64,000 nucleotides of DNA from Clostridia bacterium (GTDB taxonomy: Bacteria; Bacillota; Clostridia; Oscillospirales; Acutalibacteraceae), in contig JAFQEL010000034.1 in assembly GCA_017399065.1 (NCBI GenBank), positions 280 through 64,279 on the forward strand, written 5' to 3'. This document shows positions 26,585 through 64,000 of this stretch, one piece after another. The notes beneath the pieces were generated by a model that was given only the letters and a program-made list of their open reading frames with translations, was not told the origin of the DNA and did not search any database. Position numbers and translations under genes: made by a program. Positions within the stretch are counted from its first letter, which is position 1; the number at the start of each line of letters is the position of its first letter.

Positions 26585-28281
<1,697 letters not shown>

Positions 28282-31331: not shown

Positions 31332-31335
31332 AACG

Positions 31336-31761: not shown

Positions 31762-31794
31762 AAGATTACTCCTTAGATAACATTATAAAATGTC

Positions 31795-32028
31795 TTAGGC
31801 AATTTTCGAAACGAGCATAAATGCAATAAGAAGTCCGTAAATTGTAAGAGCTTCCATGAGTGCAAGAGAAATGATAAGTGTTGAACGGATATCTTTTGCG
31901 GAATCAGGCTGACGGGCAATACTTTCCATAGCCGCTTTGGCTGTCATACCCTGACCGATAGCAGGTCCGAGTGTACTGATTGCGATTGCGATTGCTGCTG
32001 CGATTGCGATAATAGCTGAATTTGTCAT
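31795..32028 (-). CDS. atpE: Fo ATP synthase c subunit (H+-type motif)
   Basis: [23 protein letters not shown] hairpin. Ala follows the carboxylate, which is not the Na+-type ES/T motif. Confidence 0.9.
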
Positions 32029-32071
32029 TTTTAAATACTCCTTTAGTTGAAAATTTATTATGTTTTAAATA

Positions 32072-32740
32072 TTATTCTGTAACTTCATCCAAATAGATTG
32101 ATACAAGCATTGTGAATACGATTGCCTGTAAGGCGCAAAACAGAAGTGAAAGCACCATCATTACAACAGGCGCGCCTATGGGGAGAATGTGATAAAGCTC
32201 CTCGGTCACCGTTTCTTCGCCGAAAATGTTACCATAAAGCCTTAATGCCAGAGATGCAGGCTTGATTATTTCATCAAGGAGCATCAGAGGAAGCATAAAG
32301 AACATCGGTGATACAAAACGTTTAAAATAATGCTTGGTATTGTGTTTTATACCCGAAATCTGGAGGAACACAAATGTAACGATACCAAGACCCAAAGTTA
32401 CGGAAAGACTCGCCGTAGGTGCTTTGACATATTCTGTAAGACCTACTCCCGGAATAAGTCCTGAATAGTTCGAGAAAATGATAAAGATAAAAAGCGATGA
32501 TAAAAATGTAAAGTATTTTCTTGCTTTTTTCTTGCCGAGAGTATCTGAAAAGAAATTATCAAGATACTCAACACCGGTTTCAATAATGTTCTGAAATTTA
32601 CCCGGGCGTTCCTTGAGATTTTTCTTTACGACAAGAGAAAGAACTGTAATAACCGCAAGAATAATCCACATAGTTACGACCTCTCCTGTAACGTCGAGAA
32701 AACCAAAAATTTTGAAAAGCACTTCGGATTTTTCACCCAT
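32072..32740 (-). CDS. atpB: Fo ATP synthase a subunit
   Basis: Conserved ..LALRLYGNIFGEE.. arginine helix. Polytopic membrane protein. Confidence 0.9.
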   Translation of the reverse strand: MGEKSEVLFKIFGFLDVTGEVVTMWIILAVITVLSLVVKKNLKERPGKFQNIIETGVEYLDNFFSDTLGKKKARKYFTFLSSLFIFIIFSNYSGLIPGVGLTEYVKAPTASLSVTLGLGIVTFVFLQISGIKHNTKHYFKRFVSPMFFMLPLMLLDEIIKPASLALRLYGNIFGEETVTEELYHILPIGAPVVMMVLSLLFCALQAIVFTMLVSIYLDEVTE

Positions 32741-33728: not shown

Positions 33729-33798
33729 AAAAAAATTGAGTATTCACAGGTCAAATCCCTTATGAATACTCAATATGGTCGGAGTGACGGGACTTGAA
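33729..33798 (-). repeat. Proximal copy of the 70-bp direct repeat (tRNA-Pro 3' end plus terminator)
   Basis: Identical to 26178-26247. Includes the tRNA terminator ATTGAGTATTCA..TGAATACTCAAT plus U7 on the minus strand. Confidence 0.9.
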
Positions 33799-33852
33799 CC
33801 CATGGCCTCTTGGTCCCGAACCAAGCGCGATACCAAACTTCGCCACACCCCG
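33776..33852 (-). tRNA. tRNA-Pro (anticodon CGG), CCA encoded
   Basis: Hand-folded. Acceptor CGGGGTG/CACTCCG, D arm GCGA-AGTTTGGTA-TCGC, anticodon arm CTTGG-TTCGGGA-CCAAG (CGG, G37), variable loop AGGCC, T arm ATGGG-TTCAAGT-CCCGT, discriminator A, CCA. 77 nt. Confidence 0.9.
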
Positions 33853-49335: not shown

Positions 49336-50508
49336 TCACTTTCTGAACACAGATACAACTTTGCTTATCGCTTTGTATGCAGGTACTTCGAGCACTTTTT
49401 CGGCTTCTTTCAGCTGATTGCGTATCTCGATGCTCTGAGGACAATGGGTTTCGCATTTACCGCAACCGATACAGGCTGAAGCAGGTGCTGATTTGCCCTT
49501 GGTTGTACATTTGACATACTCTCTGAAGCCTGCAAAATTGCCGTCGGCAAAATGTCGGTTGTAAGCAGAAAAAGTACCGCTGATATTGATATTCTGAGGG
49601 CACGGCATACAGTATTCACAGCCCGTACAGCCGACCTTCATTTTAGAGTTGATAGCATTTACAACTCTTTTCAGCATCTCTTCATCGTTAGCGGTCAGTT
49701 CACCGATTTCCGTCTCTGATGCGGTCTTTATGTTATCTGCCACCATTTCATCGGAATTCATACCCGAAAGCACTACGCTGACTTCAGGCTGATTCCACAG
49801 CCAGCGAAAAGCCCACTGTGCAGGCGTATGCTGAACGGGATGTTTTAAAAATATATCCTTTGCCTCTGAAGGAAGATTATTGACAAGACGGCCGCCGCGG
49901 AGAGGCTCCATAATCATAACAGGAATTCCTTTTTCGTGCGCATGGTTGAGGCCCTTACGGCCTGCCTGAGTATGTTCATCCATATAATTGTACTGAATGA
50001 GGCACATATCCCAGTCGTAAGCATCTATAATCTTACAGAACATATCGGATTTACCGTGATATGAAAAGCCGACCTGACGGATTGCTCCGCTTTTTTTCTT
50101 ATCCTCTATCCATTTTTCAATACCGATACTTTTCAGACGTTCCCAGACCTTTATATCCGCCATCATATGCATAAGATAAAAATCTATATGGTCAGTACGT
50201 AATCTTTTCAGCTGCTCATTAAAAAGCTTATCAAGTATTTCTGTGCTGCGCATAAGCTGAGGAGGAAGCTTTGTTGCGATATACACCTTATCACGGATAT
50301 TATTCTTCTCAAAAATTTCGCCTATCGCAGATTCACTGCCAGGATATATGAAGGCTGTATCAAAGTAATTGACGCCGTTATTGAAAGCATTCATTACCTG
50401 ACGCTCGGCATCAGCCATATTGATTCTGCCCATTTTCTTTTTGAAACGCATACATCCGAAGCCTAAAACAGAAAGCTTATTGCCGTATTTATCCTCTCGG
50501 TATTTCAT
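49336..50508 (-). CDS. Aldo/keto reductase fused to a C-terminal 2x[4Fe-4S] ferredoxin-like domain
   Basis: AKR N-terminus (..LGFGCMRF..YFDTAFIYPGSE..) and C-terminal CTGCEYCMPC / CIGCGKCETHC clusters. ATG 50508 lies 6 nt after GGAGG. The track's 50526 is a TTG. Confidence 0.75.
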   Translation of the reverse strand: MKYREDKYGNKLSVLGFGCMRFKKKMGRINMADAERQVMNAFNNGVNYFDTAFIYPGSESAIGEIFEKNNIRDKVYIATKLPPQLMRSTEILDKLFNEQLKRLRTDHIDFYLMHMMADIKVWERLKSIGIEKWIEDKKKSGAIRQVGFSYHGKSDMFCKIIDAYDWDMCLIQYNYMDEHTQAGRKGLNHAHEKGIPVMIMEPLRGGRLVNNLPSEAKDIFLKHPVQHTPAQWAFRWLWNQPEVSVVLSGMNSDEMVADNIKTASETEIGELTANDEEMLKRVVNAINSKMKVGCTGCEYCMPCPQNINISGTFSAYNRHFADGNFAGFREYVKCTTKGKSAPASACIGCGKCETHCPQSIEIRNQLKEAEKVLEVPAYKAISKVVSVFRK

Positions 50509-50592
50509 GACCGACCTCCGAGCCAAACATTTTTCTATTTTATAATATAAATTATATCATATATTAATTTTATATTCAACAGAACATACATA

Positions 50593-50627
50593 TAAAAAGC
50601 TGACTCTGCTTTAAAAACAGAGTCAGC
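50593..50627 (-). terminator. Rho-independent terminator ending the ACS-VOR-ilvE operon
   Basis: On the minus strand, GCTGACTCTG..CAGAGTCAGC hairpin followed by a U-run. Confidence 0.75.
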
Positions 50628-50648: not shown

Positions 50649-51725
50649 TCAGTTAACCTTAACAATCCAGTTAAGCTTGTCTTCCTTCTTACCCCACTGG
50701 ATACCTGTAAGCTCATCATAAAGGAACTGAGCAACAGGACCGATCTTGGAATCATTGATAACAAGGTGCTCGTCGCCGTCGATATACTCACCTACAGGTG
50801 AAATAACAGCTGCTGTGCCTGTGCCGAAGGACTCTGTAAGCTTGCCTGCCTTGTAAGCTTCTTTGACTTCGTCAACAGAAAGCTTTCTTTCCTCAACCTT
50901 ATAGCCGTTTGCCTTAAGAACCTCGATACAAGAAGCTCTTGTAACACCGGGAAGGATGTTGCCGTCTTCAAGGGTCGGAGTGATAACAACGTCGTCAATT
51001 ACAAAGAATACGTTCATTGCACCTACTTCGTCGATATACTTTCTTTCAACACCGTCAAGCCAGAGAACCTGAGCATAGCCCATCTTATCAGCCTTTTCCT
51101 GACCGATAAGAGATGCAGCGTAGTTACCGCCTGCCTTAGCCATACCTGTACCGCCCTTTACGCAGCGGACATACTCTCTCTCGATATAGATCTTAACGGG
51201 ATCCATACCGTTAGCGTAATATGAGCCAACGGGAGAAAGGATGATGCAGAAAATATAGCTGTGAGAAGCGTGAACACCAAGGAAAGCATCTGTTGCGATG
51301 ATGAAGGGACGGATGTAAAGAGATGTTCCGTCACTGTGGGGAACCCAATCCTTATCTACATCAACAACAGCCTTGATAGCCTCAAGAGCGAGGTCGGGGT
51401 CAATACGCGGAACGCAAAGGCGGTCGCAAGTATTGTTCATTCTCTCGATATTCTTCTGAGGACGGAAAAGCTGTATGCTGCCATCAGCAACTCTGTAAGC
51501 CTTAAGACCCTCAAAAAGCTCCTGTGCATAGTGGAAAACCATTGATGACGGATCGAGAGCGAGAGGGCCGTAGGGAACGATTCTGCCGTCGTGCCAGCCC
51601 TGACCCTCATCATAATTCATTACAAACATATGGTCTGTAAAGATTTTACCGAAGCCGAGCTTGCTTTCGTCTGCGGGCTTTGCCTTGGGAGCAGTAGTTT
51701 TTTCTATTTTAAAATTGTAGCTCAT
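50649..51725 (-). CDS. ilvE: Branched-chain amino acid aminotransferase
   Basis: 358 aa from ATG 51725 (AAGAGG RBS). ..FEGLKAYR.. and ..GGTGMAKAGGNYAASL.. are class IV aminotransferase motifs. The track's longer ORF overlaps the upstream gene. Confidence 0.9.
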   Translation of the reverse strand: MSYNFKIEKTTAPKAKPADESKLGFGKIFTDHMFVMNYDEGQGWHDGRIVPYGPLALDPSSMVFHYAQELFEGLKAYRVADGSIQLFRPQKNIERMNNTCDRLCVPRIDPDLALEAIKAVVDVDKDWVPHSDGTSLYIRPFIIATDAFLGVHASHSYIFCIILSPVGSYYANGMDPVKIYIEREYVRCVKGGTGMAKAGGNYAASLIGQEKADKMGYAQVLWLDGVERKYIDEVGAMNVFFVIDDVVITPTLEDGNILPGVTRASCIEVLKANGYKVEERKLSVDEVKEAYKAGKLTESFGTGTAAVISPVGEYIDGDEHLVINDSKIGPVAQFLYDELTGIQWGKKEDKLNWIVKVN

Positions 51726-51750
51726 TGAAAATACCTCTTTTAAATTAATC

Positions 51751-52281
51751 TCAATAATCATAACCGAGCTTGAGAGCTGTTTTGTTAACTTCAAGAAGGT
51801 TCTGATGACGTGCAGATACAACCTTTGACAAGGGAGCATCGATACCGTCGAAACCGAGCATCGGGACTTCTTTGAGAAGCTTACCTGTTATGATCATATT
51901 TGCAAGTGTGCTGATGCCTTTTTCGTTTGCAATCTCTGTTGCGGGAATATAGTAAACGTCAACGTCTGTTCTTTCAACCTTACGGGAAATAAGTGTTGAA
52001 TCGACAAAGATCTTACCGCCCGAAACAACCTCGTTTTCGTATCTGTCAAGTGAGGGAAGGTTCATTGCAACAAGAACATCAGGATTGCTGACGATCGGTG
52101 AACCGATAGGCTCATCGCTTACGATAACACTGCAGTTTGCTGTACCGCCGCGCATTTCGGGGCCGTAGGACGGGAGCCAGGAAACCTGCTTGTTTTCAAG
52201 AAGACCCTTGTAAGCAACAAACTTACCTGCAAAAAGGATACCCTGACCGCCGAATCCGGCAAAAAGAATATTACAGCTCAT
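51751..52281 (-). CDS. 2-oxoacid:ferredoxin oxidoreductase, gamma subunit
   Basis: [20 protein letters not shown].. is the canonical gamma N-terminus. ATG 52281 lies immediately after the beta stop. Confidence 0.85.
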
Positions 52282-52282
52282 A

Positions 52283-53041
52283 TTATTTTGCCTCCTCTTC
52301 TGCATAGATATCTTTATAAACACCGAGAGGATAGTAAGGAAGCATATTTTCCTCAAGCCACTCGAGTGCTTTTACAGGTGTCATACCCCAGTTTGTAGGA
52401 CAGGTTGAAACAACCTCAATAAGAGAGAAGCCTTTGCCTTCAATCTGGTTCTGGAAAGCCTTTTTGATAGCTTTCTTTGCCTTTTTTATGTTTGCGGGAC
52501 TGTTGACTGCAACTCTTTCAAGATAAGCTGCACCGTCAACTTTTGAGAGAAGCTCGCAAACCTTTACGGGATAGCCGACTGTCTCAACATCTCTGCCGTA
52601 AGGAGAGGTCTGAGTAACCTGACCGGGAAGAGTTGTCGGAGCCATCTGACCGCCTGTCATACCGTAAATAGCGTTGTTAACGAAAATTACAGTGATATTC
52701 TCTCTTCTTGCTGCTGCGTGAACTGTTTCTGCAGTACCGATAGCTGCAAGGTCACCGTCACCCTGATATGTAAATACAATATTGTTTTCAGGGTCTGCAC
52801 GCTTGACACCTGTTGCAACAGCCGGTGCTCTGCCGTGAGGAGCCTGAACAAAATCAACATCAAAATAATCGTAAGCCATAACGGAGCAACCAACGGGTGC
52901 TACACCGATTGTTCTGCCCTGAATACCAAGCTCGTCAATTGCTTCGGCAACAAGTCTGTGAATAATACCGTGTGTACAACCGGGGCAATAGTGGAGAGTT
53001 GCATCTGTCAATGACTTGGGTTTTTCAAATACTATAGCCAT
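52283..53041 (-). CDS. 2-oxoacid:ferredoxin oxidoreductase, beta (TPP-binding) subunit
   Basis: ..YCPGCTHG.. Cys motif and [12 protein letters not shown]-binding motif. Confidence 0.9.
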
Positions 53042-54105
53042 TATTTATTGCCTCCTTCATTGACTTTTTCTATCTTTGCAAGAACCTCTTCGGGAGAAGG
53101 AATCATACCGCCTACGCGGTTGCAAAGATATACGGGCTTCTTGCATTCGATAGCAAGCTGAATGTCTTCAATCATCTGACCCATATTCATTTCAACGGAA
53201 ATAAATGCCTTGCACTTATCTGCAGCTGCATTAAGAACCTTGTTGGGGAACGGCCAGAGAGTGATAGGACGAATCATGCCTACCTTGATGCCCTTTGCTC
53301 TTGCTTCTACGATTGCATTCTTAGCTACACGGGCTGTAATGCCGAAAGAAACAACGCAGATTTCTGCATCTTCCATTAAGTACTCTTCGTAAAGAACTTC
53401 GTTCTCTTCTATTTCTTTATAGCGCTCATAACGCTCAAAGTTTGTCTTTTCAAGTTCTTCCGGCTTAAGGTAAAGAGAGTTGACAATGTTATGCTTTCTC
53501 TCGCCTTTTGTGCCTGTAAGTGCCCAGGGCTTATCAAATGTTTTTGCGTTGGGCTCAGGAAGCTCAACGGGCTCCATCATCTGACCCATAGTACCGTCAG
53601 CAAGAATCATAGCAGGCATTCTGTACTTATCTGCAAGATCAAATGCAGTTGAAGTAAGAGAAGCCATTTCCTGAACTGATGACGGTGCAAGAACAATCTT
53701 CTTGAAGTCGCCGTGGCTTCCGCCCTTAACTGCCTGGAAATAGTCCGACTGTGAAGGCTGGATACCGCCGAGGCCGGGGCCGCCGCGCTGAACATTGACA
53801 ATAAGTGCAGGAAGATCAGAGCCTGCAAGATATGAAATACCTTCGCTCTTAAGAGATACACCCGGGCTTGATGATGATGTCATAACACGCTTACCTGTTG
53901 CGGCAACACCAAGCACCATATTTACGGCAGCAATTTCACTTTCTGCCTGAAGGAATACGCCGCCGATCTTAGGCATACGTTTTGCCATATAAGCAGCGAT
54001 TTCTGTCTGAGGAGTAATAGGATAACCGAAGTAGTGCATACAGCCTGCTCTGATAGCAGCTTCAGCAATAGCCTCGTTACCTTTCATTAAAACTTTCTCA
54101 CCCAT
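53041..54105 (-). CDS. 2-oxoacid:ferredoxin oxidoreductase, alpha subunit (VorB/KorA-like)
   Basis: ..[25 protein letters not shown].. canonical alpha N-terminus. Confidence 0.9.
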
Positions 54106-54116
54106 TTATTTTCACC

Positions 54117-54323
54117 TTACCTTTCAACCGTAATTGCACAGTCAGGACACATTGTTGCACAGAAAGCGCAACCGATGCACTGACTCTCATCAACACAATG
54201 TGCAGGATGATGTCCCTTTGCATTAAGCTTTGCAGAGTCAAGCTCTACTATCTTTTTAGGACAAACTGTGACGCATAAGCCACAGCCCTTGCATACATTT
54301 TCTGCGAATGTTACTTTTGCCAT
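54117..54323 (-). CDS. 2-oxoacid:ferredoxin oxidoreductase, delta subunit (2x[4Fe-4S] ferredoxin)
   Basis: CKGCGLCVTVCP and CIGCAFCATMCP. ATG 54323 lies 9 nt after GGAGG. Confidence 0.85.
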   Translation of the reverse strand: MAKVTFAENVCKGCGLCVTVCPKKIVELDSAKLNAKGHHPAHCVDESQCIGCAFCATMCPDCAITVER

Positions 54324-54352
54324 TTTTTCTGCCTCCATTCAAAGAAAAAATC

Positions 54353-55015
54353 TTAAACTATCTTTTTTTGTAAAGTCAGCGGAAACAGATTCGGGATCTT
54401 TCCGTTGAGATTATTAACTAAATCTGCTGTTACTGTTGTCATTTTTACGGGAAGCTGAGAAATCTCACTTAACCTCTCTGCCTCGGCAACAGAACTTAAA
54501 ACGTCTTCAGGAGTTGTAAGCCCACCGAGATTCGAATTGTTTACAATAGCGGTGAAGCTGATTTTGCCTGCCGCCTCTATCTCGCGCATAATTTCAATAG
54601 CATCCTCTGCTGTAGGAGTAAGGGGTCTGTACTTATTGAAAACAAAAAGCATTTCGTAATCGTTTTCGTCTTTTATGTAATCGGCGTAACGGCCTAAAGC
54701 ATAAGCACCGCGGTCATCGCCGCCGATATCCATTATAGCACTTTCTCCCTGTTTGTCAAAAATCGAATAGACCTCCTGAGGCAGTGCGGGTAAATCGACA
54801 TTGGATGAAGCAAACTCGGAGGATATAAGGCGTATTCCTGCCTGAGTCAGCTCATCAATACTGTCTCTTGTGCGGAAATAGGGATTGACAATATCAAGGT
54901 CTGCAACAACAACGTCTTTGCCGAGATTTTTAAGATAAAAAGCATAGTTGACTGCTATGTTTGTTTTACCCGAGCCGTAATGGCCTGCTAACAGCGTAAC
55001 ACGTTTGCTTTGCAT
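54353..55015 (-). CDS. P-loop NTPase of the MinD/ParA/CooC (SIMIBI) type, unknown role
   Basis: Deviant Walker A LLAGHYGSGKTN, ..VVADLDIVNPYF... Embedded between the acyl-CoA synthetase and the oxidoreductase genes. Confidence 0.6.
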   Translation of the reverse strand: MQSKRVTLLAGHYGSGKTNIAVNYAFYLKNLGKDVVVADLDIVNPYFRTRDSIDELTQAGIRLISSEFASSNVDLPALPQEVYSIFDKQGESAIMDIGGDDRGAYALGRYADYIKDENDYEMLFVFNKYRPLTPTAEDAIEIMREIEAAGKISFTAIVNNSNLGGLTTPEDVLSSVAEAERLSEISQLPVKMTTVTADLVNNLNGKIPNLFPLTLQKKIV

Positions 55016-55036
55016 CTTAAATCACCTCTTTATGAA

Positions 55037-57325
55037 TTATAATTTGTTTCTCATTATCTTGCCGCTTGTTGTTTTGGGAAGCTCATCTCTGAACACAACA
55101 ATTCGCGGATATTTGTAAGGAGCTGTTTTCGCCTTAACGTACTGCTGAATATCCTTCTTGAGCTCCTCTGTAGGCTCTGTGCCCTTGACAAGAACAATGC
55201 TTGCCTTTACAACCTGACCGCGCACCTCATCGGGAGCGGCTGAAACACCGCACTCAAGAACATAAGGAAGCTCCATAATAACACTTTCGATTTCAAACGG
55301 GCCTATACGGTAGCCTGATGACTTGATAACGTCATCAACACGGCCGACGTACCAATAGAAACCGTCTTCATCCTGCCATGCAACGTCGCCGGTGTGATAA
55401 TAGCCGTCGTGCCAGACTTCTTTGGTTTTGGCTTCGTCATTGTAGTAGCCTGTGAACAGACCGCAGGGAGCACCGTCCTTGACGTTGACAACGATTTCGC
55501 CGTTTTCACCGACGGGCACTTCGTTGCCGTCGTTATCAACGAGCTTAACGTCATAAATCGGAGCAGGTTTACCCATTGAGCCGATTTTATGGTCTGCACC
55601 GGTCATATTACCGATAATCATTGTGCTTTCGGTCTGACCGAAGCCCTCGAGAATCTGAAGACCCGTTGCCTTTTCAAACTGGCGGTAAACCTCGGGGTTA
55701 AGAGCCTCACCTGCTGTTGTCATATGCTTGACAGAAGAGAAATCGTAATTCGAAATATCCTGCTTGATCATCATTCTGAGCATTGTGGGCGGTGCACAGA
55801 AGGTTGTGATATGATGCTTTGCAAACATCGGTAAGATATCTGCTGCATCAAATCTGTCAAAGTCGTAAACAAAGGTTGCTGCCTCACAAAGCCACTGGCC
55901 ATATAGCTTACCCCACATTGACTTAGCCCAGCCTGTATCGGAAATTGTAAAATGAAGACCGTCAGGGTCAACATTGTGCCAATACTTTGCCGTATGGAAA
56001 TGGCCTAAAGCATATTTATAGTTGTGAGCTGCAATTTTTGGATAACCTGTTGTGCCTGATGTGAAGAACATAAGCATAAGGTCGTCTCCACCTGGAGCAT
56101 TCTCTCCTCTTTCGTAGTGAGTGCTGTAAAGAACTCTTTCCTCGTCGAAGTTTCTCCAGCCTTCTCTTTCACCGTTGACAATAATCTTGTGTTCAAGTGA
56201 AGGACAGGTTCTTGCAGCTAAATCTACCTGATGAGCTGTATCACCGTCTGCAGTGCAAAGAATAGCTTTGACGCCTGCAGCCTGGAAGCGGTACTCAAAG
56301 TCGTGCTCCTGAAGCTGATTCGGTGCGGGAATTGCAACAGCACCCAGCTTATTGAGACCAATCATAGCGTACCAGTACTGATAATGGCGCTTAAGAACGA
56401 GCATAACTCTGTCGCCTTTTTTGATGCCAAGGGATTTGAAATAGTTAGCTGCCTGAGCAGAGCCTTTCTTCATATCCTTGAAAGTAATACGTCTTTCGGT
56501 CTTGTCTCGTGAAATATGAAGCATTGCAAGCTTTTCCGGTTCTTTGTCTGCAAGCTCATCTACAAGGTCAAAAGCAAAATTGAAATTTTCTGTATTCTTG
56601 AACTTAATTGATGTCGGAGTACCCTTTTCATTCTCAACAACATCAACATACTTCTGGTAAATACGCTTTTTTGTATCCTTGACGGTTGACTTTGTATCCT
56701 TAACCTTCTTAGCAGGCTGAAGCTCAGGAATAGGCTCGCCCGAAGGATTAAGAACGATAGCATAGAAGGTACAGTCCTTACCGTCAACAGCAATCATGCC
56801 GTGAGGTGTAAGTGAATCGTAATAAATGCTGTCGCCGGGACCAAGGATTTCGGAATGTTCGCCGACCTGAACCTTAAGCTTACCTTCAATAACAATATCA
56901 AGCTCCTGACCGTCGTGAGATGTTAGCTCAATATCCTTATTCTGATTTTCTTCGCTGTATGTAGCTTCAACAAAAAGAGGCTCGGCAATTTTGTTCTTGA
57001 ATTTTGCAGCAAGGTTGAAATATGTCATACCGTGTGCTTTTTCAATTTTCTGACCCTTACCTGCCTTTGTGAAAACGTAGTTGGTGAGCTTGGGAGTACT
57101 ACCCTCGATGATACTTGTAACATCAACATTAAAAGCTAACGCACAGCGGTAGATAAAAGCAAAGTTAAGATCACTCTCGCCGTTTTCACAAGCAAGATAT
57201 TCACCCTCGGAAACACCTGTTTTCTCAGCCATCTGGGCTGCGGTATATCCTTCAATTTCACGAAGCTCTCTGATTCTGGCGGCCATTTCCTTGATTTTAA
57301 AATCAAGACCCGTCATTTTCTCCAT
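55037..57325 (-). CDS. XRE-type HTH plus cupin sensor domain fused to an AMP-forming (medium/short-chain) acyl-CoA synthetase; copy 1
   Basis: aa 1-70: ..RIRELREIEGYTAAQMAEKTGVSEGEYLACENG.. (HTH_3). aa ~120-200: cupin (..GDSIYYDSLTPHGM..). Then FFTSGTTGYPK, YHTGD, GRVDDVIKSSGYRIGPFEIE and PKTTSGKIMR. ATG 57325 lies 8 nt after AGGAGG. Confidence 0.85.
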   Translation of the reverse strand: MEKMTGLDFKIKEMAARIRELREIEGYTAAQMAEKTGVSEGEYLACENGESDLNFAFIYRCALAFNVDVTSIIEGSTPKLTNYVFTKAGKGQKIEKAHGMTYFNLAAKFKNKIAEPLFVEATYSEENQNKDIELTSHDGQELDIVIEGKLKVQVGEHSEILGPGDSIYYDSLTPHGMIAVDGKDCTFYAIVLNPSGEPIPELQPAKKVKDTKSTVKDTKKRIYQKYVDVVENEKGTPTSIKFKNTENFNFAFDLVDELADKEPEKLAMLHISRDKTERRITFKDMKKGSAQAANYFKSLGIKKGDRVMLVLKRHYQYWYAMIGLNKLGAVAIPAPNQLQEHDFEYRFQAAGVKAILCTADGDTAHQVDLAARTCPSLEHKIIVNGEREGWRNFDEERVLYSTHYERGENAPGGDDLMLMFFTSGTTGYPKIAAHNYKYALGHFHTAKYWHNVDPDGLHFTISDTGWAKSMWGKLYGQWLCEAATFVYDFDRFDAADILPMFAKHHITTFCAPPTMLRMMIKQDISNYDFSSVKHMTTAGEALNPEVYRQFEKATGLQILEGFGQTESTMIIGNMTGADHKIGSMGKPAPIYDVKLVDNDGNEVPVGENGEIVVNVKDGAPCGLFTGYYNDEAKTKEVWHDGYYHTGDVAWQDEDGFYWYVGRVDDVIKSSGYRIGPFEIESVIMELPYVLECGVSAAPDEVRGQVVKASIVLVKGTEPTEELKKDIQQYVKAKTAPYKYPRIVVFRDELPKTTSGKIMRNKL

Positions 57326-57350
57326 TGATTCAACCTCCTGGTTTATGGGA

Positions 57351-57630
57351 CAAAACATAAAAACCCGTCCCAAAGATATCTTTGAGACGAGTTATATATA
57401 ACCCGCGGTACCACTCAAATTGCAGTAATAACTGCCACTCTCAAGGTCTGTCAACCTCTATGCATTAACGCAGCAATCACGGAGAGGTTCTACTGAGCAC
57501 AAACGCCGTTCTTCCTCCCGGCTCAGAAACTACAAACAACAGAAACCTTGCTATGACTTGCACCGACCGTCATTTCTCTATAAAGCTTGGTATACTGTGC
57601 CCTTTTCTTCAACGCCTTTACTATTCAACT
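57351..57630 (-). promoter_or_regulatory. T-box riboswitch leader 1 (specifier read as GUA, Val)
   Basis: Minus strand. K-turn GGC-GUU-GA..GA-GCC, AGAGA bulge, GGUCGGUGCAA distal loop, UGCGUUA F-box. T-box AAUUUGAGUGGUACCGCGG (57421..57403). Terminator CGUCUCAAAGA..UCUUUGGGACG plus U-run. Confidence 0.8.
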
Positions 57631-57636
57631 TTCTCA

Positions 57637-57665
57637 AAGATACCACAACTGTTTTGAAAAGTCAA
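57637..57665 (-). promoter_or_regulatory. Promoter of T-box leader 1
   Basis: Minus strand TTGACT, 17-nt spacer ending in TG, TATCTT. Confidence 0.45.
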
Positions 57666-57690
57666 TACATTATTTAATATATATTATATA

Positions 57691-59976
57691 TTAAAGCTTG
57701 TTTCTCATAATTTTACCGCTGATTGTTTTCGGGAGCTCATCTCTGAAAACAACAATTCTCGGATATTTATAAGGAGCCGTATTTTTCTTGACGTATTCCT
57801 GAATCTCTTTCTTGAGTTCCTCTGTCGGCTCAGTACCCTTGGTAAGAACAATGCTTGCCTTGACAACCTGACCGCGGACCTCATCGGGAGCAGCTGAAAC
57901 ACCGCACTCAAGAACATACGGAAGCTCCATAATAACGTTTTCTATTTCGAACGGACCGATACGATAGCCCGATGACTTGATAACGTCATCAACACGGCCG
58001 ACATACCAGAGATATCCGTCTTCATCACGCCAAGCAGTATCACCTGTATGATAAAGGCCGTCGTGCATAGCCTCACCGGTTTTTTCTTCATCGACTTCAC
58101 AGCCTTTATAGTAGCCAAGGAACAGTCCACACGCATTTTTATCGCCCAACCTTACAACAATTTCGCCTGTTTCACCGTCTGCAACAGACCTGCCGTCAGG
58201 ATCGACAACATCGATATTATAAAGAGGTGTAGGTCTACCCATAGCACCGATTTTGATCTTTGAGCCATTAAGGTTTGCAATTGACAGAGTAGTTTCAGTC
58301 TGACCGAATCCCTCGTGAATTCTGAGACCCGTTACCTTTTCGAACTGCTTGAAAACCTCCGGATTAAGAGCTTCACCTGCCGTAGTTGCGTGCTTTATTG
58401 AGGACAAATCGTACTGTGAAATATCCTGCTTGATAAGCATTCTGTACATTGTGGGAGGTGCACAGAATGTTGTGATGTTGTATTTTGCAAACATAGGAAG
58501 AATCTTCGAAGCATCAAAACGCTCGAAGTCATAAACAAACACACAGCCCTCGCAAAGCCACTGTCCGTAGAGTTTACCCCACAGTGCTTTACCCCAGCCT
58601 GTTTCTGAAATCGTGAAATGGACACCGTCACGCTGTACACAGTGCCAATATTTTGCTGTAATAAAATGACCAAGAGGATACTTGTGGCTGTGAGCAGCAA
58701 TTTTCGGATAGCCTGTTGTACCTGAGGTGAAGAGCATAATCATCGGGTCATCACCGCAGGCAGCATCTGCTTCACGGACAAAACGTCTGCTGAAAAGGCC
58801 GAACTCCTCATCGAAATTATGCCAGCCCTCTTTTGAGCCGTTAGCAACAATTTTGGTTTTAAGAGTAGGACAATTTTTTTGAGCCTCGTCTATATAATCT
58901 GTTGCCTTACCGTCTGCAGTAACTACAACTGCACTTACACCTGCTGCATTGAAGCGGTATTCATAGTCGTGCACAACAAGCTGATTTGTTGCAGGAATCG
59001 CAATCGCACCGAGCTTATGGAGGCCGAGAATAGCAAACCAGAACTGATAGTTACGCTTAAGCACAAGAAGAACTCTGTCACCCTTCTTGATACCTAAAGA
59101 TTTAAAGTAGTTAGCTGCCTGAGAGGAATATTCTTTCATTTCCTTGAAAGTAAATTTGCGTTCTGTCATATCGTCTGAAATATGAATCATCGCGAGCTTC
59201 TCAGGATATGTTCTGCCGATTTTATCAATAACGTCAAATGCAAAGTTAAAGCTGTCTTCGTAATTGAACTCAATGCTGTTACAGACACCGTTTTCATCAA
59301 CAGTTGTTTTGATGAATTTGTCACAGATAAGCTTATCTTCTGCAGTAGATTTACCTGTATTGACAGTGCTCATATGGTTATCTGCAAGCTTCTCATCCTC
59401 CGCCATAACCATAGCAAGGAAAAGACAATCTTCACCGTCAACAGCTATCATACCGTGAGGAATAGAGCTGTTGTAGAATATACTGTCGCCCTCGTGAAGA
59501 ATTTCAACGTGCTCACCTACCTGAACCTTAAGAGCACCCTTTACAACAAGATCAAACTCCTGACCGGAGTGAGTTGTAACCTCAATAGGCTTTGACTGAA
59601 GCTCACTGGAATACTCGTATTTTACCCAGTAGGGATTGGCGAGCTTATTTTTAAACTTGGGAGCAAGGTTCTGAATAAGAATACCTTCTTCATTCGCTGT
59701 TACCTGACCCTGTCCGCGTCTTGTAACATTATAGGTTGTGAGCTTTGCACTCTGACCCTCAAGAATGTCTGTAAGCTCAACGCCAAAAGCCAATGCGCAC
59801 TTATGAACAAATGAGAAAGGCATATCCTCCATACCGTTTTCGTATGCAAGATATTCTTCGATACTTACGCCTGTTTTATCAGCCATTTCAATATCTGATA
59901 AATTATAAATGTCGCGGAGCTCTTTAATTCGCTCGGCCACCTCTACCAGTTTGTTTTCATAAGAATTGTTAAGCAT
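57691..59976 (-). CDS. XRE-type HTH plus cupin sensor domain fused to an AMP-forming acyl-CoA synthetase; copy 2 (paralogue)
   Basis: Same architecture as copy 1 (..RIKELRDIYNLSDIEMADKTGVSIEEYL.., ..GDSIFYNSSIPHGM.., LFTSGTTGYPK, GRVDDVIKSSGYRIGPFEIE, PKTISGKIMR). Confidence 0.85.
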   Translation of the reverse strand: MLNNSYENKLVEVAERIKELRDIYNLSDIEMADKTGVSIEEYLAYENGMEDMPFSFVHKCALAFGVELTDILEGQSAKLTTYNVTRRGQGQVTANEEGILIQNLAPKFKNKLANPYWVKYEYSSELQSKPIEVTTHSGQEFDLVVKGALKVQVGEHVEILHEGDSIFYNSSIPHGMIAVDGEDCLFLAMVMAEDEKLADNHMSTVNTGKSTAEDKLICDKFIKTTVDENGVCNSIEFNYEDSFNFAFDVIDKIGRTYPEKLAMIHISDDMTERKFTFKEMKEYSSQAANYFKSLGIKKGDRVLLVLKRNYQFWFAILGLHKLGAIAIPATNQLVVHDYEYRFNAAGVSAVVVTADGKATDYIDEAQKNCPTLKTKIVANGSKEGWHNFDEEFGLFSRRFVREADAACGDDPMIMLFTSGTTGYPKIAAHSHKYPLGHFITAKYWHCVQRDGVHFTISETGWGKALWGKLYGQWLCEGCVFVYDFERFDASKILPMFAKYNITTFCAPPTMYRMLIKQDISQYDLSSIKHATTAGEALNPEVFKQFEKVTGLRIHEGFGQTETTLSIANLNGSKIKIGAMGRPTPLYNIDVVDPDGRSVADGETGEIVVRLGDKNACGLFLGYYKGCEVDEEKTGEAMHDGLYHTGDTAWRDEDGYLWYVGRVDDVIKSSGYRIGPFEIENVIMELPYVLECGVSAAPDEVRGQVVKASIVLTKGTEPTEELKKEIQEYVKKNTAPYKYPRIVVFRDELPKTISGKIMRNKL

Positions 59977-60013
59977 AATCTCACCCTTTCAGGAAAAATA
60001 AATTTAAAAAATT

Positions 60014-60302
60014 CAAAAAAAAACGCCCCAAAAAGAAATTCAACATTTCTCTTTGAGACGAATTATAAAATCCGCGGTACCACTCAAATTGCAAGCAAAG
60101 CCTGCCGCTCAGGGGTCTATCAACCCTTTTGCACTAACGCAGCATTCTCGGAAGAAGCCTACTGGGAAACCGTTCGGTTCTTCAACTCGGAAGGGATAGG
60201 TTATTAAAACAAGGTACTGTTGGCTCGCAGCAACCGCCAACTCTCTGAAAGTCCATAGTTTCAACCGTCTTCGTCATAGTTTTTACTTGAGATATGAAAT
60301 TT
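60014..60302 (-). promoter_or_regulatory. T-box riboswitch leader 2 (specifier read as AUC, Ile; less certain)
   Basis: Minus strand. K-turn AAC-UAU-GA..GA-GUU, AGAGAG bulge, GGUUGCUGCGA distal loop, UGCGUUA F-box. T-box AAUUUGAGUGGUACCGCGG (60090..60072). 16-bp terminator plus U9. Confidence 0.8.
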
Positions 60303-60308
60303 GGATAA

Positions 60309-60337
60309 ATAATATCACAATGTAATTTTGGTGTCAA
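60309..60337 (-). promoter_or_regulatory. Promoter of T-box leader 2 (divergent from the leader 3 promoter)
   Basis: Minus strand TTGACA, 17-nt spacer, TATTAT. Confidence 0.5.
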
Positions 60338-60394: not shown

Positions 60395-60423
60395 TTGACA
60401 AAATATAATTTTAGTGATATTAT
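60395..60423 (+). promoter_or_regulatory. Promoter of T-box leader 3
   Basis: TTGACA (60395-60400), 17-nt spacer, TATTAT (60418-60423). Confidence 0.5.
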
Positions 60424-60429
60424 TTTTGC

Positions 60430-60720
60430 ATATTTTTTATATTTGTTAAATGCTACGAAGGAATTACGTCTTTTTGGTACGGCAGTTCAGAGAGTTGACG
60501 GCAGGTGCAAGTCAATCTGTTACAAAAATTCGGTCTCGTTCCGGAGCAGAGCTCCCCAACCGCTTACGGCATGTAAGGAGCTACGGACGCCCCGTTATCA
60601 TGGCTACAGGCTTTTTAGAGCCTTAATGAGTGACTGCTTTTGCAGTAACCGGGGTGGTACCGCGGATTTTGAAATTCGTCCCTGAGGTCATATTACAGTG
60701 ACCTCAGGGCTTTTATTTAT
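60430..60720 (+). promoter_or_regulatory. T-box riboswitch leader 3 (specifier CUC, Leu)
   Basis: K-turn UGC-UAC-GA (60451-60458) .. GA-GCA (60544-60548), AGAGAG bulge, GGCAGGUGCAA distal loop, CCGUUA F-box. T-box AACCGGGGUGGUACCGCGG (60647-60665). Terminator CCCTGAGGTCA..TGACCTCAGGG plus a T-run. Confidence 0.85.
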
Positions 60721-60752
60721 TAAAGAATATTAAACAATATTATTCCGAAAGG

Positions 60753-62165
60753 ATGAGCGAAATGAGAAAAATCATTATTGCAGACCGTACAGTGGTTCTT
60801 AAATCACAGTCAAAGGACACATCTCTAAGCTTTAAAGAAAAAGTTGAAATCGCAAGACTTCTCGAAAGTGCAAAGGTTCAGGTTGTAGAATTTCCTGCGA
60901 TTGAAAACGTTAAAATTGATACTCTGCTACTCAAAACAATCTGTGCATTTCTGAAAAACAGCACAATGAGTGTATGCACAGGAATGACCGAGGAGGGTGT
61001 AACAAACGCATGGAATGCTATTTCTTCTGCATCAAACCCCCGCCTTTCCGTTGCGCTCCCCCTCTCACCTGTTCAGATGGAATATGTCTGCCACAAAAAG
61101 GCACCGAAAATGCTTGAGCTTATCACTTCACTTATTGAGAAATCAGCTTCTCTTTGCAATGACGTCGAGTTTGTTGCACTTGATGCTACAAGAGCAGAAA
61201 AAGATTTCCTTTACGAAGCAATCAACACAGCAATCAATGCAGGCGCAAAAACCGTCACAATCTGCGATGACGAAGCAGCAATGCTCCCCGATACTTTTGT
61301 AAGCTTTATTAAAAAAATAAAAGAAGATGTTCCCGCAATAAACAGCGTTAAGCTCGGTGTTATGTGCGACAATAAGAACGGTTGCTCTGCAGCAGCTTCA
61401 ATGATGGCTCTTGCTGCAGGCGCAGACGAAATCAAGGCCGCCAGCGGCAAGGATCTTGGCATAGCATCACTGCTTACTGTTTCCAACATTGTAAGAAACA
61501 GCGGTGACAGACTGGGAATCAATGCTGATCTTAACTACACAGAGTTTGCAAGAATAATCTCTCAGGTTTCAAACCTAACAGACGGTAAGCCCAACGCAGA
61601 TGCCGTAGGCTCTGCAGTTCCATATTCTGAGTTCAACCTTACGGAGAACGATGATGCTCAGACCGTTGCAGATGCTGTCAAGAAGCTCGGCTATGACCTC
61701 TCAGAGGATGATAACGCAAAGGTTTACGAAGCATTCAAAGCCCTTGCAAAGAAAAAGCCTGTTTCAAACAAAGAGCTCGACGCTATAGTGGCCACAAGTG
61801 CACTTCAGGTTACACCTGCATACAAGCTCATTAACTACGTTATCAACTCGGGTAACATAATAAATTCATCCGCTCAGATTACTCTTGAAAAAGATGAGCA
61901 GGAGAAAAATGCCATTGCTATCGGTGACGGTCCTATTGATGCTGCTTTCAATGCCATTGAGCAGATTCTCGGTCATCACTACGAGCTTGACGATTTCCAG
62001 ATTCAGTCTGTTACCGAAGGCAGAGAAGCCGTTGGCTCAGCTATTGTAAGACTTCGTTCCAACGGCAAGCTCTATGCCGGTAAGGGTATTTCAACAGACA
62101 TTATCGGTGCAAGCATCAAAGCATATATCAATGCAATCAACAAGATTATTTTTGAGGAGAACTGA
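60753..62165 (+). CDS. LeuA/CimA-family (DRE-TIM) homologue with degenerate active site and an intact C-terminal LeuA-dimer/regulatory domain
   Basis: Aligns along its whole length with 2-isopropylmalate synthase, but DTTLRDGEQ is replaced by DRTVVLKSQ and HxH(D/N)D by MCDNKN. The C-terminal GDGPIDAAFNAIEQI..GKGISTDIIGASIKAYINAINK is conserved. Confidence 0.7.
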   Translation: MSEMRKIIIADRTVVLKSQSKDTSLSFKEKVEIARLLESAKVQVVEFPAIENVKIDTLLLKTICAFLKNSTMSVCTGMTEEGVTNAWNAISSASNPRLSVALPLSPVQMEYVCHKKAPKMLELITSLIEKSASLCNDVEFVALDATRAEKDFLYEAINTAINAGAKTVTICDDEAAMLPDTFVSFIKKIKEDVPAINSVKLGVMCDNKNGCSAAASMMALAAGADEIKAASGKDLGIASLLTVSNIVRNSGDRLGINADLNYTEFARIISQVSNLTDGKPNADAVGSAVPYSEFNLTENDDAQTVADAVKKLGYDLSEDDNAKVYEAFKALAKKKPVSNKELDAIVATSALQVTPAYKLINYVINSGNIINSSAQITLEKDEQEKNAIAIGDGPIDAAFNAIEQILGHHYELDDFQIQSVTEGREAVGSAIVRLRSNGKLYAGKGISTDIIGASIKAYINAINKIIFEEN

Positions 62166-62170
62166 TAACT

Positions 62171-64000
62171 ATGAAGCTTTCTTTTTCAACTAAGGGTTGG
62201 CACGGATATTCATGGGATGAACTCTGCAACATAGCAGAAAAACAAGGTTTCAACGGTATTGAGCTCCATAATATCAACAACTCTTCATTCAACGAAAAAA
62301 ACGGTGCATTTTATTCAACCTCCGCTCAGGCAACAGTCAGAAATATGTACGAGAAGAATCTCAGAATTCCTTGTATTGACACCCTCGCAAACTCTGCCTG
62401 TGTAGAGGACAGAGAAGCTTTTACAAAAGAGCTTGATAAATGCCTTGAGATTGCCTGCACTCTTCATATCCCCTACGTACGTATTAAGGCAACTGACACA
62501 GGTGCAGATTACGACACACAGAAAAATGAGGTTATAAGCGTACTTTCAGCAATCATTCCCAAGGCTGAAAAATTAGGTGTTACAATCATCATTGAAACAG
62601 CAGGTATTTTTGCTGACACATCAAAGCTTCTTGAGGTGCTCAACACCTTTGCCTGTGACAGCCTTGCTGCTCTGTGGGACGTTTATTCAACTTACTTTAT
62701 AGCAAAAGAAGAGCCTGAAATCACAATCAAAAACCTTGGTGCATACGTTAAGCACGTACACATAAAGGATGCTGTCAGTGAAGACGGTGCCCTCACCTAC
62801 TGTCTTATCGGCGAAGGTGAGCTTCCGATTAACGAGGTTGTACTGTCACTCACATCTGTTAACTACAACGGTTATGCATCAATAGAATGGGATCCCAAAT
62901 GGATGCCTGAGCTTGATGATATGGAGATCATCTTCTCTCACTACGTGAGCTTTATGGCTCGTTTCGGTAACACCTCAAGAGGTAAGAAAAACCTTTTCTG
63001 GAACAAAACACATACAGGTAACTACGTCTGGAAAAAGGAAACTCTTATCGAAAAGACCTTCTCACAGGTGCTTGATAAAATGGTTGAGGAATTCCCTGAC
63101 CAATACGCTTTCAAATACACAACTCTCGATTACACAAGAACATATTCTCAGTTCCGCGATGACGTTGACGAGTGCTGCCGTGCATTCCTTGCTCTCGGCG
63201 TAAAGCCCGGCAGTCACGTTGCCGTATGGGCAACTAATGTTCCTCAGTGGTATATTGCTTTCTGGGCAGCAACAAAAATCGGTGCTGTTCTTGTTACAAT
63301 GAACACAGCGTACAAAATTGCTGAAGCAGAGTATCTTCTCAAGCAGTCTGACACACATACACTTATTCTTATTGACGGCTGGAGAGATTCCAACTACAAC
63401 GAAATAATCGGTCAGCTTTGTCCTGAGCTTGAAAACACTGTACCCGGCGAACCTCTTCATTCAAAGAGACTTCCGTTCCTCAGAAACGTTATTACAGTCG
63501 GTTTCAAGAAAAAAGGCTGCCTTACCTGGGATGAGGCTATTGCAAGAGCATCCGAAGTTCCTGTTGAAGAGGTTTACAGAATTGCAGCTAACGTTGACGT
63601 AAACGACGTATGTAATATGCAGTACACCTCAGGTACAACAGGCTTCCCCAAGGGCGTTATGCTCACTCACTACAATATCGTTAATAACGGTAAGAATATC
63701 GGCGACAGAATGGATCTTTCAACCGCTGACAGAATGATGATTCAGGTACCTATGTTCCACTGCTTCGGTATGGTTCTCGCAATGACCGCAACAATGACAC
63801 ACGGCGGCACAATATTCCCTCTCCCCTACTTTTCACCCAAGCCGTCTCTTGCCTGCATCAACAACGAAAGAATCACCGCATTCCACGGTGTTCCTACAAT
63901 GTTTATTGCTCTGCTTGAGCATCCTGACTTCCCAAAGACTGATTTCTCATATATGAGAACAGGTATTATGGCAGGCAGCCCTTGTCCGATTTCTGTTATG
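62171..64000 (+). CDS. Fusion of a xylose-isomerase-like TIM barrel (sugar phosphate isomerase/epimerase, AP_endonuc_2 type) and an AMP-dependent acyl-CoA ligase; 3' end beyond the window
   Basis: Absent from the ORF track (no stop). I read 610 uninterrupted codons from ATG 62171. N-terminal ~285 aa: MKLSFSTKGWHG..GIELHN..VRIKA..IIIETAG..HIKD..SIEWD. From ~63050: ..FSQVLDKMVEEFPDQYAF.., YTSGTTGFPKGVMLTH, ..GVPTMF... Confidence 0.75.
   Translation, partial: MKLSFSTKGWHGYSWDELCNIAEKQGFNGIELHNINNSSFNEKNGAFYSTSAQATVRNMYEKNLRIPCIDTLANSACVEDREAFTKELDKCLEIACTLHIPYVRIKATDTGADYDTQKNEVISVLSAIIPKAEKLGVTIIIETAGIFADTSKLLEVLNTFACDSLAALWDVYSTYFIAKEEPEITIKNLGAYVKHVHIKDAVSEDGALTYCLIGEGELPINEVVLSLTSVNYNGYASIEWDPKWMPELDDMEIIFSHYVSFMARFGNTSRGKKNLFWNKTHTGNYVWKKETLIEKTFSQVLDKMVEEFPDQYAFKYTTLDYTRTYSQFRDDVDECCRAFLALGVKPGSHVAVWATNVPQWYIAFWAATKIGAVLVTMNTAYKIAEAEYLLKQSDTHTLILIDGWRDSNYNEIIGQLCPELENTVPGEPLHSKRLPFLRNVITVGFKKKGCLTWDEAIARASEVPVEEVYRIAANVDVNDVCNMQYTSGTTGFPKGVMLTHYNIVNNGKNIGDRMDLSTADRMMIQVPMFHCFGMVLAMTATMTHGGTIFPLPYFSPKPSLACINNERITAFHGVPTMFIALLEHPDFPKTDFSYMRTGIMAGSPCPISVM

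Follow-up and report, generated by a model that had tools for sequence, protein, structure and literature searches.

Introduction

The fibre-degrading anaerobes of the rumen and gut have branched-chain volatile fatty acids among their classic growth factors, and these acids are fed to dairy cattle. The conversion of branched acids to valine, isoleucine and leucine has been known from tracer experiments since the 1960s, and to our knowledge it has no agreed genetic basis in bacteria. T-box leaders raise expression when their cognate tRNA is uncharged, and the genes placed behind them restore the amino acid concerned. AMP-forming acyl-CoA ligases cost two ATP equivalents per thioester and are not used in ATP-yielding fermentation. 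The present work concerns a gene cluster under three T-box leaders in a stretch of 64,000 nucleotides (nt) of a Clostridia bacterium (GCA_017399065.1, contig JAFQEL010000034.1, positions 280-64,279 of the forward strand), referred to below as the window, to which all coordinates refer. This cluster is probably a regulon for the salvage of valine, isoleucine and leucine from environmental isobutyrate, 2-methylbutyrate and isovalerate.

The reductive carboxylation of branched acids to amino acids was established by tracer work on rumen bacteria, as referenced in PMC7356843, and methanogens use the same carboxylation route (PMC10658910). Two characterized families of acyl-CoA ligases are of direct relevance here. 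MacsMa of Methanosarcina acetivorans prefers 2-methylbutyrate and adenylates C3-C8 acids, and in its pocket Gly replaces Trp416 of acetyl-CoA synthetase (Acs), while an alternative Trp259 is critical (PMC10455477). For MbcS of Staphylococcus aureus, 2-methylbutyrate and isobutyrate are substrates with micromolar Km, isovalerate is a poor one, and acetate is not accepted (PMC10026030; PMC13584741).

Results

The cluster is composed of three attenuation-controlled units, each with its own promoter: the Ile and Val units on the minus strand and the Leu unit on the plus strand. The Ile unit carries an acyl-CoA synthetase gene, syn2. The Val unit carries a second synthetase gene, syn1, followed by genes for a P-loop NTPase, a four-subunit 2-oxoacid:ferredoxin oxidoreductase of the VOR type and the aminotransferase IlvE. 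The Leu unit carries a LeuA-like gene, termed here pseudo-LeuA, and a third synthetase gene, syn3. T-box leaders were called with the Rfam covariance model RF00230 (gathering score 93 bits). The control elements are:

60309..60337, minus strand: promoter of the Ile module, sigma-70 type (TTGACA-17-TATTAT with TG; conserved in 69 distinct leaders)
60051..60286, minus strand: Ile T-box leader (Rfam 100.3 bits, E 3.5e-22; specifier AUC at 60197-60195; terminator at 60060-60024)
57637..57665, minus strand: promoter of the Val module (conserved in 73 distinct leaders; TTGACT-17-TATCTT with TG, lying within the 69 nt that follow syn2)
57380..57621, minus strand: Val T-box leader (Rfam 87.2 bits, E 8e-19; specifier GUA at 57533-57531, followed by G; terminator at 57393-57362)
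60395..60423, plus strand: promoter of the Leu module (TTGACA-17-TATTAT with TG; conserved in 39 distinct leaders)
60446..60686, plus strand: Leu T-box leader (Rfam 98.1 bits; specifier CUC at 60535-60537; terminator at 60680-60709)

The Ile and Leu leaders exceed the gathering score. The Val leader of the window falls below it, and the orthologous leaders of two related loci, L041 and L059, reach 101.6 and 100 bits. All three leaders end in a terminator hairpin that overlaps the 3' half of the T-box sequence, which reads GGUGGUACCGCG or AGUGGUACCGCG. The antiterminator bulge is UGGU in each of them (N = U), which fits the discriminator base A73 of the tRNA.

The specifiers were read off the Rfam alignment and then checked by comparing orthologous leaders. 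One genome per GTDB species was scanned with syn1, which gave at least 574 stretches encoding relatives, and the best 80 of them (80-97% identity) were analysed. The T-box motif lies upstream of syn2 in 72 of 72 loci, of syn1 in 78 of 78 and of pseudo-LeuA in 45 of 45, and it was found upstream of syn3 in none of 43 loci and of the oxidoreductase delta gene in none of 73. In the syn1 leaders (n=78) GTA and the next G are invariant, the three preceding bases vary (TTT, TCG, CTT, TCT, ATT), and the helix closing the loop covaries (GAAA/UUUC, GAAG/CUUC, GGAG/CUCC). The syn2 leaders (n=72) have an invariant ATC, preceded by T, C or G and followed by C, A or G, and the pseudo-LeuA leaders (n=45) have CTC, except for the synonymous CTG in 2. 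When 42 leaders were aligned jointly, the Val, Ile and Leu triplets fell in the same columns, and of the 17 pairs that RNAalifold predicted for the leader alignment, 13 show compensatory changes. Because the triplets remain invariant or synonymous amid variable neighbours and covarying stems, the tRNAs sensed are, as read from this comparison, tRNA-Val for syn1-NTPase-VOR-ilvE, tRNA-Ile for syn2 and tRNA-Leu for pseudo-LeuA-syn3.

The Leu leader also occurs in a second, distinct sequence type (CUC followed by C), present in L009, L011, L014, L019, L022, L044 and L047. These seven loci carry a divergent clade of pseudo-LeuA (~42% identity; motif VQVSD instead of VMCDN). Other loci of the divergent clade, such as L010, L012 and L020, have the leader type of the window, and the Leu specifier is kept in both types. 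Apparent extra T-boxes before the NTPase gene (9 loci) or ilvE (6 loci) were rejected, as they were matches of a regular expression allowing 2 mismatches, located ~360 nt upstream within syn1 or other coding sequence; a search of L031, L048 and L059 with the Rfam model gave no extra T-box before either gene.

The two ligases placed under the Ile and Val leaders are:

57691..59976, minus strand: syn2, acyl-CoA synthetase with HTH_XRE, Cupin_2 and AMP-binding domains (761 residues; Pfam)
55037..57325, minus strand: syn1, acyl-CoA synthetase with HTH_XRE, Cupin_2 and AMP-binding domains (~762 residues; Pfam, NCBIfam)

The start codons of syn1, ilvE and the oxidoreductase gamma gene were corrected using the sequence and near-identical database proteins; that of syn1 is the ATG at 57325 and not the TTG at 57373, as database proteins of 98% identity begin with MEK. 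Both synthetases are paralogues in which an XRE-type helix-turn-helix (HTH) and a cupin are joined to a complete AMP-forming ligase, with AMP-binding and AMP-binding_C domains (AMP-binding E-values of 1.6e-65 and 3.7e-65). The N-terminal HTH-cupin module of ~215 residues shows full-length homology to free-standing regulators of ~185 residues. The catalytic domain of syn1 aligns with MacsMa (PDB 3ETC) with an E-value of 4.8e-187 over 521 residues (239-759), and the pocket signature of MacsMa is retained in both paralogues as GFGQTE, with Gly in place of Acs Trp416, and KYW, with the alternative Trp259. The best NCBIfam family for both is MbcS, with 440 bits for syn1 and 431 for syn2 against an equivalog cutoff of 850. 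Judged by these scores, syn1 and syn2 are related to MbcS but are not MbcS orthologues.

Comparison of 78 syn1 and 70 syn2 sequences gave 14 positions that are conserved within and differ between the paralogues, 9 of them in the HTH-cupin module and 5 in the catalytic part. Four of the 5 catalytic positions fall in the GW[A/G]K..W and QTE[ST]... segments flanking the pocket Trp and Gly. At two paralogue-specific pocket positions syn2 agrees with MacsMa (Gly462, Ala567), and at 3 of the 4 pocket-segment positions the residue in syn1 (Ala, Met, Met) is the larger of the two, the fourth being Gly in syn1 and Ala in syn2. The agreement of syn2 with MacsMa and the bulkier residues of syn1 therefore give weak but consistent support to the view that syn2 may take 2-methylbutyrate and syn1 the smaller isobutyrate.

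The remaining genes of the Val unit and its end are:

54353..55015, minus strand: P-loop NTPase, SIMIBI class (220 residues; weak CbiA/ParA Pfam matches)
54117..54338, minus strand: oxidoreductase delta subunit, 2x[4Fe-4S] ferredoxin-like (Fer4_7 and related Pfam domains; OGOR_delta/PorD_KorD in NCBIfam)
53041..54105, minus strand: oxidoreductase alpha subunit, VorB type (NF005507 558 bits, cutoff 399; POR_N, PFOR_II)
52283..53041, minus strand: oxidoreductase beta subunit, thiamine diphosphate-binding (TPP_enzyme_C; start codon ATG overlapping the stop codon of alpha)
51751..52281, minus strand: oxidoreductase gamma subunit (PF01558 POR; start codon taken from the sequence)
50649..51725, minus strand: ilvE, branched-chain aminotransferase, class IV type II (NF009897 498 bits, cutoff 307; TIGR01123 416 bits, cutoff 250)
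50599..50627, minus strand: intrinsic terminator closing the Val unit (13-pair stem followed by TTTTTAT)

The domain set of a four-subunit VOR enzyme (POR_N/PFOR_II, TPP-binding, POR-gamma, 2x[4Fe-4S]) is complete, and in NCBIfam the alpha subunit passes the VorB cutoff, the other three subunits scoring below every equivalog cutoff. The PDB entries nearest to alpha are 1YD7 and 8YS5, the alpha subunits of Pyrococcus 2-keto acid:ferredoxin oxidoreductase and of 2-oxoglutarate synthase. The AlphaFold2 model of the NTPase has a predicted local distance difference test (pLDDT) score of 80, and its Foldseek matches are signal recognition particle (SRP) GTPases, ATPase-type HypB and FleN at template modelling (TM) scores of 0.5-0.6, which indicates generic SIMIBI resemblance only. 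The protein has zero cysteines, so it cannot hold a cluster, and a role as a NifH-like ATP-driven electron donor was rejected. From gene position alone, one may guess that it is an assembly or accessory factor of the oxidoreductase.

The Val unit thus runs on the minus strand from promoter and T-box through syn1, the NTPase, delta, alpha, beta, gamma and ilvE to the terminator, with gaps from syn1 to ilvE of 21, 14, 11, -1, 1 and 25 nt. No terminator separates the Ile unit from the Val leader, which transcripts of the Ile unit reach. The hairpin at 50627-50599(-) is the sole strong terminator 3' of the Val unit, and the remaining terminator-like matches inside it are weak and about as frequent as chance predicts (17 observed, 14.3 expected). 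An earlier note on this DNA had described one minus-strand unit from T-box to ilvE with gaps of 0-25 bp and a single terminator at 50593-50627; gene calls, domain matches and the measured gaps bear this out, and the strong hairpin lies where that note had placed it. Its second T-box and synthetase module immediately upstream was also found, in the form of syn2 with its own promoter and leader, and domain and family matches bear out its proposal that the locus holds a ligase, a ferredoxin-dependent 2-oxoacid oxidoreductase and a branched-chain amino acid (BCAA) transaminase. The fusion of HTH and cupin to the ligases was absent from that note, and a third T-box/synthetase module (plus strand, 60446-64000) lies just beyond the part of the window that it had covered.

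An internal promoter-like site was observed within the NTPase gene at 54732-54759(-), ~400 nt upstream of delta (TTGACA-16-TATAAT with TG, 12 of 12 positions of the sigma-70 consensus). It is kept in ~35 closer relatives, with Ile always encoded by ATA, is lost in distant ones, and overlaps the constrained codons F-D-K and A-I-M. The site might act as a T-box-independent promoter for VOR and ilvE. An operator for the HTH domains was sought in the 69, 73 and 39 aligned distinct promoter regions, where only the -35 element, the extended -10 element and an A-rich upstream tract are conserved, and a repeat search of the window gave no convincing candidate.

The Leu unit contains two genes:

60753..62165, plus strand: pseudo-LeuA, LeuA-like TIM barrel with LeuA_dimer (470 residues; HMGL-like and LeuA_dimer Pfam domains)
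62171..64000, plus strand: syn3, candidate isovalerate-CoA ligase (extends past the window; 842 residues in the identical metagenome contig L001)

In the product of syn3, a TIM barrel resembling xylose isomerase is joined to an AMP-binding ligase, which falls in the PRK12583 subfamily and is unrelated to the MbcS group. The start of syn3 lies six bases after pseudo-LeuA, which it directly follows in every case. In pseudo-LeuA the motif DTTLRDGEQ of the Neisseria enzyme is changed to DRTVVLKSQ and the metal-ligand HCH to MCD, and the histidine pair is retained in none of 42 orthologues. The protein misses every NCBIfam cutoff for isopropylmalate synthase (best model 278 bits, cutoff 532). With catalytic and metal residues lost and the cutoffs missed, it was not classed as LeuA, and the possibility that the gene encodes a true isopropylmalate synthase leading to de novo leucine was rejected, the catalytic residues being gone in all orthologues. 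The LeuA_dimer domain (PF08502) is intact (E 6.2e-34, model positions 2-130 of 131) and is better conserved than any other part of the protein, with a mean pairwise identity of 73% compared with 53% in the barrel. This pattern suggests a product-sensing subunit.

All of the best 80 carriers are uncultured metagenome-assembled genomes (MAGs) assigned to Acutalibacteraceae, Oscillospiraceae or 'Clostridia', mostly from the rumen, caecum, colon or rectum of goats, sheep, cattle, deer and buffalo. The earlier note had spoken of rumen ruminococci, which is a loose attribution; the carriers are uncultured Acutalibacteraceae/Oscillospiraceae MAGs and not Ruminococcus sensu stricto. The full order syn2-syn1-NTPase-delta-alpha-beta-gamma-ilvE is present in 49 of the 80 loci, and nearly all others are truncated by contig ends. 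The NTPase gene stands between syn1 and delta in almost every locus extending that far. Pseudo-LeuA-syn3 adjoins the cluster wherever it is found: in 31 loci it lies upstream in divergent orientation, which is also the arrangement of the window, and in 11 it follows ilvE in the same direction. Departures from the order are limited to L059/L072, L048/L056 and L073. In L059 and L072 ilvE stands between syn1 and the NTPase gene, and in these two loci as well as in L048 and L056 a nitrilase-superfamily amidase is inserted directly after syn1:

12311-13096 of L059 and 12168-12977 of L048: inserted carbon-nitrogen hydrolase (PF00795)

The best NCBIfam match of the inserted protein is an archaeal nitrilase model (135 bits, cutoff 500), and YafV, not the top match, scores 114 against a cutoff of 249. 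It may be an omega-amidase, which would pull transamination toward amino-acid synthesis. Of the loci retrieved, L073 (22 kb) is the only one with an isolated syn1 orthologue (80% identity), no syn2, NTPase, VOR or ilvE being nearby.

Several features of the surrounding DNA were also recorded. Just past the operon terminator there is a promoter-like site (50579-50551) followed by a gene for an aldo/keto reductase with a C-terminal 2x[4Fe-4S] fusion (49336-50526, minus strand); in L006 and L007 a homologue is situated 1-2 kb past ilvE, a loose linkage to the cluster. The rest of the window contains glycoside hydrolases (GH), F-type ATPase genes, pyruvate kinase and similar genes. Plant-glycan hydrolases are abundant (GH2, GH30, GH43, a second rhamnosidase and an SASA esterase), and an alpha-L-rhamnosidase at 2578-4911(-) bears a GNAT acetyltransferase domain at its N-terminus. 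Within the F-type ATPase operon (26878-32740), an open reading frame of 736 residues (29121-31331, minus strand) contains both an OSCP/delta domain (residues 152-230) and a complete F1 alpha subunit and is an apparent delta-alpha fusion. A protein of 1552 residues (14375-19033, minus strand), whose sole Pfam match is the Listeria-Bacteroides repeat, is probably a cell-surface protein. The window also encodes a free-standing tRNA_SAD protein of the AlaX/ThrRS editing type (4915-6072, minus strand) and a lone tRNA-Pro(CGG) (33776-33852, minus strand).

Discussion

The gene content, operon structure, T-box identity, specifiers and conservation observed in this cluster, together with the kinship of syn1 and syn2 with ligases of 2-methylbutyrate and isobutyrate, point to a probable salvage pathway, within which we infer which acid is the substrate of each ligase, that the oxidoreductase runs reductively, and what the NTPase and the extra domains do. 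Under shortage of isoleucine, uncharged tRNA-Ile (AUC) would release syn2, the proposed 2-methylbutyrate-CoA ligase. Uncharged tRNA-Val (GUA) would release syn1, the proposed isobutyrate-CoA ligase, together with the NTPase, the four-subunit VOR and IlvE, and uncharged tRNA-Leu (CUC) would release pseudo-LeuA and syn3, the proposed isovalerate-CoA ligase. Each AMP-forming ligase would convert one branched acid to its acyl-CoA, the oxidoreductase, run in reverse, would combine the acyl-CoA with CO2 and reduced ferredoxin to give the 2-oxoacid, and IlvE would transaminate the latter to the amino acid. The layout of the ligases matches this scheme, with MbcS/Macs-like enzymes, presumed to act on alpha-branched acids, under the Val and Ile sensors and syn3, presumed to act on the beta-branched acid, under the Leu sensor. 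The poor use of isovalerate by MbcS likewise fits the presence of a ligase of another subfamily under the Leu T-box.

Several points weigh against this interpretation. Enzymes of the VOR type can run in either direction, and their usual annotation is catabolic. Three oxidoreductase subunits (beta, gamma and delta) and the two MbcS-like ligases remain below the NCBIfam equivalog cutoffs, so that homology does not settle substrate specificity. Moreover, VOR and IlvE stand behind the Val T-box only; therefore, a shortage of isoleucine or leucine alone would require leaky read-through, the internal promoter-like site (54732-54759) or paralogues elsewhere. No ilv or leu genes were found in the other 50 kb of the window, which says little about a de novo pathway in the whole genome.

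The same genes could form a catabolic operon, in which IlvE, VOR and CoA enzymes ferment BCAAs to branched short-chain acids. VOR-type enzymes and IlvE do make up the standard oxidative route of BCAA-fermenting Clostridia (e.g. the porA work), and the NCBI name for alpha is '3-methyl-2-oxobutanoate dehydrogenase' subunit. However, T-boxes switch on under amino-acid scarcity, and AMP-forming ligases, which use two ATP equivalents, are practically irreversible, whereas fermenters employ phosphotransacylase and kinase or ADP-forming enzymes and so gain ATP. Neither Pfam matches nor gene order across the loci revealed a phosphotransacylase, a kinase or an ADP-forming enzyme in the cluster, and a catabolic operon is thus very improbable. 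Taken together, induction on starvation by T-boxes, the AMP-forming ligases and the match of one sensor to one ligase make anabolic reductive carboxylation appear much the best reading of the cluster. The earlier note had likewise argued for an anabolic role under sensors of uncharged BCAA-tRNAs; the starvation logic of the T-boxes and the type of ligase speak in its favour, and the specifiers GUA, AUC and CUC/CUG are kept across dozens of species.

Even if the ligases work in the direction of synthesis, their products could be destined for lipids, the branched acids being scavenged as primers for membrane fatty acids when primers derived from BCAAs are short, with VOR and IlvE incidental or bidirectional. 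MbcS, the best curated family for syn1 and syn2, does exactly that in Staphylococcus aureus, and a shortage of BCAAs also drains the primers derived from them, which would leave some sense to the T-box control. Such a supply of primers is nevertheless unlikely to be the explanation, since the Val ligase is co-transcribed with the oxidoreductase and the transaminase in almost every locus reaching them, and primers need neither; the one-to-one match of ligase and cognate tRNA is, in addition, the signature of an amino-acid supply operon, although the acyl-CoAs could still serve both ends. It is also conceivable, with a probability that we place slightly lower, that the regulation is as described and the substrates are others, such as phenylacetate, propionate or precursors of 2-oxobutyrate, or that the ligases are chiefly DNA-binding regulators. 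The scores of the MbcS-like ligases (431-440 bits) are well under the cutoff of 850, MacsMa accepts a range of C3-C8 acids, and the HTH domain is intact. On the other hand, the specifiers are strictly those of Val, Ile and Leu, both pocket residues typical of branched-acid enzymes (Trp and Gly) are retained, and the promoter alignments revealed no conserved operator.

The salvage of branched acids may be accompanied by a second layer of control, which is put forward here tentatively and is rather doubtful at present. In such a scheme the ligases would be doubly controlled by the end product, through the cognate T-box and through post-translational sensor modules, and the NTPase would be dedicated to the carboxylating oxidoreductase. 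HisZ, a dead paralogue of histidyl-tRNA synthetase, makes HisG sensitive to histidine, and in the same way the dead LeuA with its leucine-sensing domain could serve the isovalerate ligase as a regulatory subunit that responds to leucine. BirA is an HTH fused to an adenylate-forming enzyme, and the HTH-cupin modules of the Val and Ile ligases could either sense valine or isoleucine or bind DNA as BirA does. The cysteine-free SIMIBI NTPase would then be an assembly or coupling factor for the carboxylating oxidoreductase.

If the proposed pathway operates, the cluster supplies candidate genes for each step of branched-acid salvage and predicts one ligase per acid. Its three T-boxes with known specifiers form a built-in readout, which makes the pathway directly testable. 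The genes may also serve as a marker set for the genome-based prediction of salvagers and dependents of branched acids in the gut. Furthermore, the repertoire of T-boxes would be extended to a ferredoxin-dependent, CO2-fixing salvage, and little-studied accessory proteins are brought to light, namely the HTH-cupin-ligase fusions, the conserved pseudo-LeuA and the SIMIBI NTPase.

In the searchable literature no combination of a T-box with a ferredoxin oxidoreductase or an acyl-CoA synthetase was found, most subscription papers being outside its reach, so that a prior description is possible; other matches concerned physiology or catabolism only. The main text of a T-box survey (PMC2494555) does not mention such controlled genes. 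The rumen pathway defined by tracers shares with this cluster its three pairs of precursor and product as well as the inferred chemistry; that work was physiological and done in other organisms, and in the literature searched no gene cluster or regulatory logic is attached to it. MacsMa can be aligned with the catalytic domains of syn1 and syn2 over their whole length, and MbcS is their best curated family, but MacsMa and MbcS have no HTH_XRE-cupin module such as the one of ~215 residues in syn1 and syn2. Unlike them, syn1 and syn2 are under T-box control, and their linkage is to VOR and ilvE and not to lipid synthesis. Four-subunit VOR enzymes and the reversible 2-oxoglutarate synthase have the same delta-alpha-beta-gamma set; compared with known VOR enzymes, here the context and regulation point to carboxylation, and a conserved SIMIBI NTPase gene lies between the ligase and delta. 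The likeness to HisZ consists of a pathway-derived pseudoenzyme beside an enzyme that it possibly regulates, and leucine binding by pseudo-LeuA or its contact with syn3 is suggested by analogy only; the likeness to BirA consists of an HTH fused to an adenylating enzyme, with the binding of DNA or amino acids by the HTH-cupin module again a matter of analogy.

The closest regulatory counterparts are T-box supply operons such as ilv-leu of Bacillus subtilis with its Leu T-box. The parts of the leader are common to both (Stem I specifier loop, AG bulge, Stem III and the UGGU antiterminator competing with a terminator), as is the logic by which an uncharged cognate tRNA induces the genes restoring its amino acid. 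In the known T-box operons the controlled genes encode the acetolactate/isopropylmalate pathway, aminoacyl-tRNA synthetases or transporters, whereas here they encode acyl-CoA ligases and a ferredoxin oxidoreductase, and three leaders with three specifiers stand in one cluster, each gating one ligase predicted to be specific for one precursor. The component families and the pathway are known, and what appears to be new is a T-box regulon apparently wired to a CO2-fixing salvage, with one presumably precursor-specific ligase per sensor.

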